Shown one piece after another: positions 18,702 through 20,483 of a stretch of 32,000 nt of DNA. The number at the start of each line of letters is the position of its first letter. Positions within the stretch are counted from its first letter, which is position 1. Position numbers and translations under genes: made by a program. The DNA is taken from NCBI GenBank assembly GCA_051251535.1, contig JBPOEV010000001.1:332698-364697 (forward strand), written 5' to 3'. The DNA comes from Alphaproteobacteria bacterium. Its GTDB lineage: Bacteria; Pseudomonadota; Alphaproteobacteria; Rhizobiales; GCA-2746425. The notes under the pieces are model-generated. The model did not search any database. It saw only the letters and a list, made by a program, of their open reading frames with translations, and had not been told where the DNA came from.

Positions 18702-20450
18702 GTGAAAGTTGCCCTTTACGCAAGATATTCAAGCGATAACCAGCGAGACGCATCGATCGCGGACCAATTCAGGGTATGTCGGTTGCATGCTGAGAAACAA
18801 GGCTGGACGGTCGTAGAAGAATACTCCGACCACGCAGTGTCCGGCGCTTCACTGCTGAGATCAGGTATCCAAGCCTTGATCGAAGATGCCCATCGCGGAC
18901 GTTTCACCCTTGTCCTTTCAGAGGCGATGGATCGCCTATCCCGCGATCAAGAAGATATCGCAGGTCTTCATAAACGGATGGCGTATGCGGACGTGAAGAT
19001 TGTCACGCTGTCCGAGGGAGAGATCACACATCTCCATGTTGGACTTAAGGGCACCATGAATGCGCTCTTTCTCAAAGACCTCGCCGACAAAACTCGCCGG
19101 GGTCTCCGTGGACGCGTTGAGATGGGCAAATCCGGTGGTGGAAATGCATATGGATACGATGTCGTCAAGAAGTTCTCGTCGGAGGGGGAACCTATCCGGG
19201 GTGATCGCACGATCAACGAGCACGAGGCTCATGTAATACGCCGAATCCTGATGGATTACGTGTCTGGAAAATCACCAAAACGCATAGCGACAGAGATGAA
19301 TAAGGAAGGCATCCGAGCACCCAGCGGGGGCGATTGGGGTTTCAGCACAATCAATGGCAACGCCAAGCGCGGCACAGGCATCTTGAACAACGAGATATAT
19401 ATCGGACGTTTGATCTGGAACCGGCAACGCTTTCTGAAAGATCCCGATACGGGTCGACGTCAGGCCCGGATGAACCCCGAAGACGAATGGATCATCCAAG
19501 AAGTACCGGAACTACGTATCGTGGATGACGAACTTTGGGCAGCTGTTAAAGAGCGGCAAGCCAAGCTGAAGCACAAGCATGGTGATGCGTCGAAATCGGA
19601 CAACCATTTTCGCGATCGACGCCGTCCCAAGTACCTCTTCTCTGGCCTCACCAAATGCGCCTGCTGTGGTGGTGGTTATACGATGATCTCCGCCGACCTT
19701 GTCGGCTGCGCAACGGCCCGCAACAAGGGAACCTGCGACAATCGTAAGAACATACGACGAGACCGCCTTGAAGAGCGGGTCCTGAACGCGCTTCGCCACC
19801 ATCTCATGGAACCGGCGCTGTTCAAGGAATTCTGCGACGAGTTCACCCGCGAGATGAATCGCCTTCGCATGGACGGCCGAGCCGTGATCAAAGCTGCGCG
19901 ATCGGAGCTTGCGAAGATTGATCGGGAGTTGGAGAAAATGCTTCAACTCTATCTCGACGACGCCCTTCCAGTAGAAATGGTGAAGGAAAAGAGCAAGAAA
20001 CTGGAAAGTCGGAAACACGAACTTGAAGACTTGCTTGCCAACGCTGACGAACCTCCGCCACTGCTACATCCGGAAATGGCTGGGTTCTACAGAGCGCAAG
20101 TGTCGAAGCTCCACGAGTCTTTGCAGGATGAAGCTGAGACGAAACGACTACAGGCAACCGAGTTGCTCCGATCCTTGATCGACGAGATCATCTTGACGCC
20201 GACCGAGGACGAAATGCTGATTGATGTGAGGGGCGATCTTGCTGGAATCCTTGGCATTTCCCTTAAACGCAAAAAACCAGCCACAGGGGCTGGTCAATCG
20301 CAATTTGAGTTGGTTGCGGGAGGGCGCTCAAATCTCAACTTGCAAACGAAAGACGGCCACCCGGTGGGGGTGGCCGATCTTCGTGAACTTGCATCGCAAG
20401 TTGAGATGGTTGCGGGGGTAGGATTTGAACCTACGACCTTCAGGTTATGA
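18702..20450 (+). CDS. Large serine recombinase (resolvase/invertase catalytic domain + recombinase domain + zinc ribbon + coiled coil)
   Basis: I chose the GTG at 18702 (AGGAG 8 nt upstream), which begins VKVALYARYSSDNQ with the catalytic Ser. Other motifs are DRLSRD, a recombinase domain (GILNNEIYIGRLIWNRQRF) and a Cys-rich ribbon (CACCGGGYTMISADLVGCATARNKGTCDN), followed by a long helical region. The frame stays open until the TGA at 20448-20450, inside the tRNA gene. The track start at 18624 is an alternative. Confidence 0.9.
   Translation: MKVALYARYSSDNQRDASIADQFRVCRLHAEKQGWTVVEEYSDHAVSGASLLRSGIQALIEDAHRGRFTLVLSEAMDRLSRDQEDIAGLHKRMAYADVKIVTLSEGEITHLHVGLKGTMNALFLKDLADKTRRGLRGRVEMGKSGGGNAYGYDVVKKFSSEGEPIRGDRTINEHEAHVIRRILMDYVSGKSPKRIATEMNKEGIRAPSGGDWGFSTINGNAKRGTGILNNEIYIGRLIWNRQRFLKDPDTGRRQARMNPEDEWIIQEVPELRIVDDELWAAVKERQAKLKHKHGDASKSDNHFRDRRRPKYLFSGLTKCACCGGGYTMISADLVGCATARNKGTCDNRKNIRRDRLEERVLNALRHHLMEPALFKEFCDEFTREMNRLRMDGRAVIKAARSELAKIDRELEKMLQLYLDDALPVEMVKEKSKKLESRKHELEDLLANADEPPPLLHPEMAGFYRAQVSKLHESLQDEAETKRLQATELLRSLIDEIILTPTEDEMLIDVRGDLAGILGISLKRKKPATGAGQSQFELVAGGRSNLNLQTKDGHPVGVADLRELASQVEMVAGVGFEPTTFRL
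20297..20340. repeat. att-like repeat Y (copy of the tRNA-fMet 3' end plus its downstream flank) inside the recombinase ORF
   Basis: 20297-20320, ATCGCAATTTGAGTTGGTTGCGGG, matches 20393-20416, ATCGCAAGTTGAGATGGTTGCGGG, at 22/24. The offset is exactly 96 bp. The right part (20327-20340) matches X. Confidence 0.7.
20393..20416. repeat. att-like repeat Z (authentic tRNA-fMet 3' end, 10 nt, plus 14 nt of flank)
   Basis: See Y. Positions 20407-20416 are the complement of the tRNA 3' end CCCGCAACCA. Confidence 0.7.
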
Positions 20451-20483
20451 GCCTGACGAGCTACCGGGCTGCTCCACCCCGCG
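20407..20483 (-). tRNA. Initiator tRNA-Met (tRNA-fMet, anticodon CAT)
   Basis: The reverse complement is CGCGGGGTGGAGCAGCCCGGTAGCTCGTCAGGCTCATAACCTGAAGGTCGTAGGTTCAAATCCTACCCCCGCAACCA, a 77-nt cloverleaf. The anticodon loop is CTCATAA. C1 faces A72 unpaired, as in bacterial initiator tRNA, and the sequence is close to E. coli tRNA-fMet as I remember it. The CCA is encoded. Confidence 0.92.

Follow-up and report, generated by a model that had tools for sequence, protein, structure and literature searches.

A large serine recombinase (LSR) encoded beside the initiator tRNA gene of an Alphaproteobacteria bacterium (Rhizobiales, GCA-2746425) appears to keep its attachment site attP in the end of its own open reading frame (ORF), so that integration and excision would give the enzyme two different C-terminal tails. 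We analysed 32,000 nucleotides (nt) of this genome, here called the window (assembly GCA_051251535.1, contig JBPOEV010000001.1, positions 332,698 to 364,697; position 1 is the first letter of the stretch). The window holds the integrase-proximal junction (attR) of a Trb-type integrative and conjugative element (ICE) inserted at the 3′ end of the gene for the initiator tRNA; the far end of the element lies beyond the window start. Judging from comparison of sequences, we put the probability of this overall reading at roughly 0.75.

The integrase reading frame ends inside tRNA-fMet

Three features define the junction:

18702..20450, plus strand: LSR (integrase) ORF, 582 amino acids (aa) including the stop; folded to about residue 517, with about 518-582 coded by terminator, attachment-site (att) and tRNA DNA.
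20407..20483, minus strand: initiator tRNA-fMet gene, the integration target (ARAGORN; Rfam tRNA, 64.9 bits).
20419..20450, plus strand: host-derived end of the ORF, VGFEPTTFRL plus TGA, complementary to the T arm, variable loop and anticodon stem-loop of the tRNA.

Read from the GTG at 18702, the LSR frame meets its first stop at the TGA at 20448-20450, according to both the window sequence itself and its ORF list. In the mechanical ORF list the frame reaches back to 18624; homologues, however, open with MKVA(I/L)YARYSSDNQ, which makes the GTG at 18702 the probable start. The tRNA, a tRNA-Met(CAT) of sequence CGCGGGG...CCCCGCAACCA, is the only tRNA gene in the window and shows the initiator hallmarks on direct reading: a C1 opposite A72 mismatch and the acceptor end CCCCGCAACCA. 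ORF and tRNA overlap by 44 nt (20407-20450), the complement of tRNA nt 76-33, and the stop TGA is the complement of U33-C34-A35. The protein terminates in ...SQVEMVAGVGFEPTTFRL, its last residues being SQVEMVAG-VGFEPTTFRL. An earlier note on this DNA had described a recombinase frame open to a TGA within the minus-strand tRNA-fMet, with its final 44 nt complementary to the tRNA and its stop overlapping the complement of the anticodon; direct reading confirms this description in coordinates and in content.

The domain composition is that of an LSR. Pfam identifies Resolvase (PF00239, residues 3-143, E 1.4e-21), Recombinase (PF07508, residues 173-286, E 2.2e-22) and Zn_ribbon_recom (PF13408, residues 312-365, E 2e-10), and residues R8, Y9, S10 and Q14 are invariant across 22 aligned homologues. 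An AlphaFold2 model built from a shallow alignment of 22 sequences is weak overall (mean predicted local distance difference test score, pLDDT, 56; predicted template modelling score 0.31), and we used it solely for C-terminal disorder. It places helices at 371-418 and 424-447 (pLDDT 64-90), and its last ordered element is a beta hairpin with a short helix at residues 493-517.

Tails are exchanged directly after VAG

LSR bodies of 530 residues that are 100% identical up to VAG bear five different tRNA-type tails: VGFEPTTFRL, AGFEPATFRL, AGFEPAAFRL, TGFEPVTFRL and AGFEPTTFRL. The same bodies also occur with non-tRNA tails, namely AGNRRNLPELKCAI and a longer one ending ..YLAA, and a 99.8%-identical body has ARNHRHRHSLRVPV. 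In every variant of this identical-body group the switch point lies directly after VAG. All sequence past VAG is therefore exchangeable, and the tRNA-type tails are owned by the host. In their DNA all copies have TGGTTGCGGG (complementary to tRNA nt 76-67) in common, with divergence setting in 1-3 bases later. The left arm of the site, TCGCAAGTnnAGA-TGGTTGCGGG, doubles as the codons for SQV(E/K)MVAG and includes tRNA nt 67-76.

These comparisons bear out two proposals of the earlier note. The first held that the C-terminal residues are encoded by the junction: the post-VAG residues swap exactly after VAG on identical bodies and follow the local tRNA. The second held that integrated and excised forms would differ in their tails, and integrated and non-integrated copies with identical bodies do appear to differ in this way, as tRNA-type tail versus AGNRRNLPELKCAI. 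The GFEPxxFRL tail was found only beside tRNA-fMet or its displaced 3′ half, and other tails were found elsewhere; the refuting condition set by the earlier note, the full tail shared at unrelated loci, was thus checked and did not apply.

The putative attachment site is an imperfect palindrome of about 48 bp, which we read in L043, L023 and L172 (numbers with L designate loci of our collection). Bases 11-12 of TGGTTGCGGGnn, equivalent to tRNA nt 66/65, form its axis; read in frame with the LSR, they are the third base of the Gly codon and the first base of the next codon. In the non-integrated copy L043 the palindrome reads TCGCAAGTAAAGATGGTTGCGGG-GG-CGCACAACCAACGATACTTGCGA. In L172, which belongs to a distant clade, it is near perfect (20/23) and reads GTGTCGGTATCGGTGGTTGCGGG-GA-GGCGCAACCACCGATACCGACAT. 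A pair of half-sites, each of about 23 bp, on either side of a central dinucleotide makes up, as far as sequence can tell, the geometry expected of a serine-integrase attP. In silico, the central dinucleotide of each junction matches that of the local tRNA. We infer that tRNA-fMet nt 1-65 are host DNA and that the 3′ end was rebuilt by the element.

Some non-tRNA tails have a less clear origin. At L090 (Paracoccus yeei chromosome CP044081.1; 10001-13186) a body identical to the tRNA-fused copies carries the tail AGNRRNLPELKCAI and is flanked on both sides by insertion sequence (rve) transposases. The same tail is found in L052, with synonymous differences. The L090 tail comes either from another right arm or from a secondary site. 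Transfer-messenger RNA (tmRNA) was considered as a source of the ..YLAA and ..QLAA tails, but no tmRNA or tRNA is present at those loci. The tail of L021 seems to run into the antisense strand of another gene. The ..YLAA and ..QLAA tails are not counted as evidence.

Both junctions and non-integrated copies can be read in relatives

In L071 (Paracoccus denitrificans DSM 413) the two predicted ends of one element are present. Its far junction, at 3606, consists of a non-coding flank followed by TGGTTGCGGG-GG-CCTGCAACCAACGATACTTGCGATTGG.., and the LSR gene lies 6.4 kb to the right; the contig terminates in the tRNA, at the integrase-side junction (11694). The right arm of the far junction matches the DNA coding for the tail AHNQRYLRLVEQQIPKLAA of a non-integrated Paracoccus LSR (L043) at 84% over 83 nt and then diverges. 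The LSR is the sole recombinase of the L071 element, which is without conjugation genes. Between the two predicted junctions the element measures 8.1 kb (3606-11704) and encodes an AbiE toxin-antitoxin pair and two Cap15-type (CBASS-like) effectors. Against the plasmid collection, the left flank of the far junction gave unrelated short matches only.

A metagenome scan for the commonest right arm (pattern GGTTGCGGG-N12-CCGATACCGACA) returned at least 120 loci. At 108 of the 120 loci listed, the left flank stops within a few dozen codons and has no recombinase arm, which identifies them as far junctions (attL). About six of the 120 have a long upstream ORF, that is, the non-integrated attP configuration. 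Far junctions carry the flank plus TGGTTGCGGG, the displaced tRNA piece being about 11 nt.

Non-integrated LSR copies are followed by cargo: a mer operon with metal resistance genes in L089, and cargo succeeded by transfer-region DUF736 and DUF2274 genes in L211. This gene content resembles the far end of an integrated Haematobacter element, whose own far junction was not found within 70 kb of the integrase. No third copy of the att arm was found in the window at up to 3 mismatches.

The paired junctions also bear on whether the LSR is the integrase of the element at all. It could be a resolvase-like accessory protein, or a decayed remnant lying by the tRNA, with another recombinase having inserted the element; the window shows no far end, there is a decayed tRNA 460 nt upstream of the LSR, and the Trb block and the LSR region differ in GC content. 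But the LSR ORF is intact with all three domains, no tyrosine recombinase is present among ten scanned element-side ORFs of at least 150 aa, and the order Trb, cargo, small ORF, LSR, tRNA is repeated in L212. Moreover, the L071 element is bounded by both predicted junctions and has the LSR as its only recombinase, and identical LSRs occur across genera, each joined to its host's own tRNA variant. We consider this alternative very improbable.

The overlap is spread through the family

A search of about 5.8 billion proteins found thousands of relatives, of which the best 120 (68-91% identity) were analysed. The 10-residue tRNA-coded tail x(G/R)FE(P/L)xx(F)(R)(L) terminates 98 of these 120 homologues. 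Scanning one genome per species gave at least 600 matches, 577 of them confirmed, and we examined the best 80 loci. At about 55 of these 80 an opposite-strand tRNA-fMet overlaps the end of the ORF with the offset unchanged. These loci, at 55-74% identity, belong to Rhizobiales, Rhodobacterales, Acetobacteraceae, Sphingomonadales and Kordiimonas. Because the offset is identical in about 55 of 80 independent loci and the tail recurs in 98 of 120 homologous proteins, the overlap of ORF and tRNA exceeds chance, as judged from these alignments. The variable residues of the tail track the local T-stem sequence across hosts (TT, AT, AA, MT, VT, LT).

In several complete records the tRNA-fMet closes an rRNA operon, with 16S sequence visible in L030, L054 and L065. 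Many contigs stop a few dozen bases beyond the LSR ORF; assemblies break at tRNA-fMet because this tRNA is often the last gene of an rRNA operon. Such breaks would be compatible with a long ORF created by sequencing or assembly error, or by a chance lack of stops, the true end lying earlier. Yet the frame and its stop recur in dozens of independent genomes, complete replicons included, and an artefact is extremely improbable. All metagenome contigs encoding the window's response regulator, the gene to the right of the tRNA (L084-L088 among them), break inside the tRNA at about 20450-20458. We sought the empty target site in six contigs with the neighbouring response regulator, but all end inside the tRNA (about 20450), leaving the site unreadable.

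At about 10 loci the LSR ORF is followed by only the 3′ half of the tRNA (to ..GGTTATGAG) and then by unrelated DNA. A tyrosine integrase is encoded beyond the displaced tRNA-fMet 3′ half in L047, L059, L074 (about 12568) and L212 (11885-13018). To judge from this arrangement, the tyrosine-integrase islands are second insertions at the anticodon loop of the same tRNA-fMet, displacing the LSR-attached 3′ half. Two recombinase families therefore stack elements at one tRNA.

A distant second LSR clade was seen in metagenome contigs L172 and L199, about 260 nt upstream of the att core. Its proteins end ..TPAAFATGVSVSVVAG; the core is as in the main clade, with a tail RRNHRYRHS(V/L) and an attP that is a near-perfect 48-bp palindrome. 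In the phage collection searched, no homologue was more than 37% identical to the LSR and none had its tail, which indicates that sequenced phages do not include this family.

The tail of the excised form is conserved as protein

The tail read in non-integrated copies and at far junctions has a conserved 14-residue frame, xRNHRYRHSLxVx(I/V)-stop. Our scan pattern, with 12 fixed nt of the right arm, constrains the bases as far as the His codon and leaves the six later codons free, and these alone are informative. The stop stands at exactly the 15th codon past VAG in 96 of 109 unique sequences (TGA 68, TAG 18, TAA 10). Conservation of the free positions is as follows:

Ser: 93% conserved, 4 codons used.
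Leu: 93% conserved, 6 codons used.
Val: 86% conserved, 4 codons used.
Terminal Ile/Val: 97% conserved.

Information per base follows the codons: positions 1-2 score high, position 3 scores low, and the value drops to about 0 bits straight after the stop. Over ..K-L-A-A-stop, L043 and L071 show four consecutive synonymous differences and a different stop codon. On this codon evidence the excised-form tail is selected as a protein. Since most copies of the tail are detached from a long ORF, selection must act when the tail joins the LSR, that is, in the excised or incoming element. Such selection lends credibility to a functional difference between the forms. The final residues are -AI or -AV in about 60% of the tails and -LAA in one clade; that these endings act as C-terminal degradation signals is a conjecture.

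Tandem sites and terminator-like hairpins precede the junction

The last ~55 codons of the window ORF contain, besides the tRNA complement, four elements:

20275..20295, minus strand (tRNA-sense): terminator-like hairpin with a T-run, inside the linker codons ..KRKKPATGAGQ..
20298..20345, no strand: site 1, a complete att-like imperfect palindrome, unused here; codes SQFELVAG-GRSNLNLQ.
20354..20376, minus strand: second terminator-like hairpin, 9 bp (8 G-C) followed by TCTTTCGTTT; codes ..DGHPVGVAD..
20394..20418, no strand: site 2, the element-derived attR arm, used; TCGCAAGTTGAGA+TGGTTGCGGG, codes SQVEMVAG, with the predicted crossover GG at 20417-20418.

Site 1 comprises a left arm at 20298-20320 (TCGCAATTTGAGT+TGGTTGCGGG, SQFELVAG), a central AG at 20321-20322 and a right arm at 20323-20345, which is symmetrical to the left arm at 14/23 positions overall and at 10/13 in the outer part. 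The left arms of both sites lie in a 24-nt direct repeat (20297-20320 and 20393-20416). In site 2 the stretch 20407-20416 also provides tRNA nt 67-76. Two long-form non-integrated LSRs, P0007 (78% identical, L211) and P0017, end in the order site 1, hairpin, SQFEMVAG-ARNHRDRHSLVVQV, and site 2 is therefore the working left arm.

At eighteen loci two or three att-like sites follow one another at a spacing of 51 or 96 nt, and in none of the 18 is a central dinucleotide repeated. The dinucleotides at tRNA junctions are GG (42), GA (13) and AG (8); about half of the two-site arrays would be expected to repeat one by chance. In L213, whose 550-aa LSR is 91% identical, an arm identical to that of site 1 is fused directly to an AG-type tRNA-fMet, ..GGGAGTAGG. 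L212 (LSR 86% identical) has the architecture of the window. The tandem sites may be alternative attP sites matching the three natural variants of tRNA-fMet nt 66/65, through which one element could enter hosts that differ at these bases, a proposal to which we give even odds.

Site 1 and the arrays of two or three sites could instead be relics of duplications, or of tandem insertions followed by deletion. The number and spacing (51 or 96 nt) of the sites do vary, and parts of arrays are lost in P0034, P0060 and P0063. Relics would not account well for the missing repeats of a dinucleotide, nor for the retention of both arms at internal sites and the use of the site-1 arm by the 91%-identical LSR in an AG-type host. 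In addition, the right arm of site 1 is conserved at about 20/23 between lineages whose LSRs are only 78% identical. Fossil sites are a possible explanation, but one that we hold at clearly less than even odds.

The hairpins also recur. On the tRNA-sense strand, the one at 20354-20376 begins 30 nt beyond the 3′ end of the tRNA; its folded region scores -44.5 kcal/mol (z-score -6.8). This long-form hairpin is near-identical in Xanthobacter, Agrobacterium and Pleomorphomonas and conserved also in Paracoccus long forms. As it is kept across genera, it is part of the element and not of the host. Most short-form relatives have a hairpin matching that at 20275-20295, beginning 14-15 nt past the tRNA end. 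Altogether, a T-run hairpin lies 11-40 nt beyond the end of the tRNA in 50 of 63 related junctions, against mostly 2-6 of 63 in control windows inside the gene. One further control window, 1200-1330 nt upstream of the junction on the antisense strand, gave 16/63. The hairpins likely replace the terminator of the tRNA or rRNA operon, moved to the far end by integration, and shield the integrase gene from antisense transcription.

Proposed mechanism

We now propose the following cycle. The attP, an imperfect palindrome of about 48 bp, would overlap the end of the integrase ORF, with crossover at nt 66/65 of the tRNA. While the element is excised or incoming, its integrase ORF would end with the conserved tail xRNHRYRHSLxVx(I/V). 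Integration would leave this 14-residue tail at the far junction, and the integrated ORF would continue into DNA complementary to the T arm and anticodon stem (coding xGFEPxxFRL), stopping at the complement of the anticodon loop. One isoform would thus perform integration and the other would have to perform excision. The T-run hairpins would stand in for the displaced terminator and block antisense read-through into the integrase gene.

Several points weigh against this reading. The crossover position is deduced from palindrome symmetry and divergence points. The excised tail of the window element is taken from relatives at most 78% identical, its own far end lying beyond the window. The non-integrated chromosomal copies L090, L015 and L046 could be rearrangements or tandem arrays, not excised circles. 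The tail sequences share ancestry, and the 18 tandem arrays may stand for no more than about 10 independent lineages. LSR residues 512-582 are predicted to be disordered (pLDDT about 22 in the weak AlphaFold2 model). Finally, the integrated tail is dictated by the tRNA and cannot evolve freely; the swap may be tolerated, not used.

The last two points also favour passive read-through. The tails would then differ but be neutral appendages on a disordered C-terminus, the by-product of a compact layout of attP, terminator and tRNA. DNA-level functions do account for the linker, att-arm and tRNA segments, and the long forms tolerate 30-50 extra residues coded by att and terminator DNA. Neutrality fits less well with the excised form, whose tail past the 23-nt half-site keeps its amino acids while codons vary and whose stop is kept in 96 of the 109 unique sequences. 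This tail is conserved though 108 of the 120 listed copies are detached from a long ORF, as expected of a translated, selected peptide. We rate passive read-through somewhat below an even chance.

If, as we propose, integration exchanges the tail, the two isoforms could be set by the state of the element. The incoming tail (xRNHRYRHSLxVAI or ..KLAA) and the resident, tRNA-coded one might tune stability or directionality and so hold a memory of integration, with tandem GA, AG and GG sites serving as alternative attP sites. For this combined scheme our confidence is low and it should be taken as tentative.

Comparison with known systems

Serine integrases are usually described with a simple attP apart from the gene and with a separate directionality factor. 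Phage Mx8 targets the 3′ end of a tRNA gene, and its swapped C-terminal segment is much longer than in the LSR family.

Mx8 is nonetheless the closest analogue, nearer than SSV. According to work by Tojo et al. (1996) and Magrini et al. (1999), cited in PMC4383910 and PMC6070905, the 3′ part of its integrase ORF contains attP, and integration supplies a new 3′ end, so that IntP and IntX have different C-termini; the reported consequence is altered specificity, not inactivation. Unlike the present family, which extends across orders, Mx8 is a single phage, and its integrase is a tyrosine recombinase. The window LSR has tandem alternative sites and built-in antisense terminators, and neither is reported for Mx8 in PMC4383910 and PMC6070905. 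By analogy with IntP and IntX, the isoform switch might matter functionally, through stability or activity; we hold this view tentatively, at less than even odds.

In SSV-type tyrosine integrases the recombination site is likewise within the ORF, and integration splits the gene ('suicidal'; PMC7253208). There the gene falls in two; here the exchange affects only the last 10-14 codons, and every domain is retained in both forms. The window LSR shares with the Mx8 and SSV kind a recombination site in its own ORF, but lacks the tyrosine recombinase fold and is not a member of that family. In mycobacteriophage BPs, attP lies in the coding sequence of the repressor, whose viral form bears an ssrA-like degradation tag at its C-terminus that the integrated form is without (PMC4557955). 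BPs is a working precedent for sensing by tail swap, although the switched protein is a repressor and the BPs integrase is a tyrosine recombinase. The idea of the earlier note that the tail could act as a sensor of integration state is a plausible hypothesis.

The canonical LSRs phiC31, Bxb1, A118 and SPbeta have the same set of Resolvase, Recombinase and zinc ribbon domains, the zinc ribbon with long helices to which the weakly modelled helices of the window LSR may correspond (PMC3783163, PMC5499577). Their att sites are short and quasi-palindromic, and the central dinucleotide must match (PMC3783163, PMC5499577). They differ in that attP is, by the descriptions, a separate short DNA site and in that targets are usually protein-coding genes or intergenic DNA.

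As for the target, according to the Islander paper of 2014 no serine integrase was known to use a tRNA gene (PMC4383910). Paracoccus aminophilus phiPam-6 (vB_PamS_Pami6) is a serine-recombinase siphovirus prophage reported in tRNA-Met(CAT) (PMC3925955, PMC6536676); those papers make no mention of an overlap of ORF and attP. Islands found by Islander and TIGER share with the present elements the tRNA 3′ target, the rebuilt tRNA and a displaced fragment that marks the far end. The identity block is about 11-13 nt here, compared with typically 20-60 nt in tyrosine-integrase tRNA islands. In the literature covered, which is incomplete and leaves absence unproven, we found no account of a serine integrase with an integration-swapped tail, nor of the tRNA-fMet family.

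The self-rewriting integrase gene would extend to the serine superfamily a principle known from the tyrosine systems Mx8, SSV and BPs. The family is widespread and offers a natural system for asking whether a C-terminal tail biases the direction or lifetime of a recombinase. It targets the initiator tRNA, often the last gene of an rRNA operon. In practical terms, it provides ready natural pairs of integrase and att site with three crossover dinucleotides and a universal bacterial target. The data also explain why the "same" recombinase is annotated with lengths of 546-601 residues.

The conjugative element

Left of the LSR lie a small ORF, cargo genes (LysR-type regulators, short-chain dehydrogenases), a decayed tRNA and the Trb operon:

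4827..14135, plus strand: Trb conjugation genes TrbB, TrbE, TrbL, TrbF/VirB8, TrbG/CagX and TrbI (Pfam).
18182..18240, minus strand: decayed tRNA (Rfam tRNA, 27.4 bits against a gathering threshold of 29, E 5.7e-4; not called by ARAGORN).
18458..18682, plus strand: small ORF of 74 aa, ending 20 nt before the LSR start; no Pfam family.

Gene order in L212 is as in the window: trbE..trbI, DUF2274, cargo, small ORF, LSR. A relaxase and a coupling protein did not turn up among the window ORFs scanned, and are probably encoded left of the window. L083, a related element from Haematobacter that exceeds 70 kb, has both, its genes including RepA/ParA, a relaxase, TraG, trbB-I and BREX. Among relatives, the LSR family is found on at least three backbones, including small defence islands such as L071. 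GC content is 60-65% in the Trb block (about 4500-14000) and 52-57% in the rest of the window, the integrase included, and the integrase module and the conjugation backbone may differ in history.

ORFs at the position of the 74-aa ORF in L212, L090, L089 and L082 share the motif DPRLxxLxxLARxAAxE[WC][YF]. Its product is a candidate accessory or directionality factor.

The decayed tRNA, 460 nt upstream of the integrase, is Arg-like by eye, with a mutated anticodon loop. We considered it as the far end of the element and rejected it, as it is a different, Arg-like tRNA inside the cargo region. It may be the scar of an older insertion.

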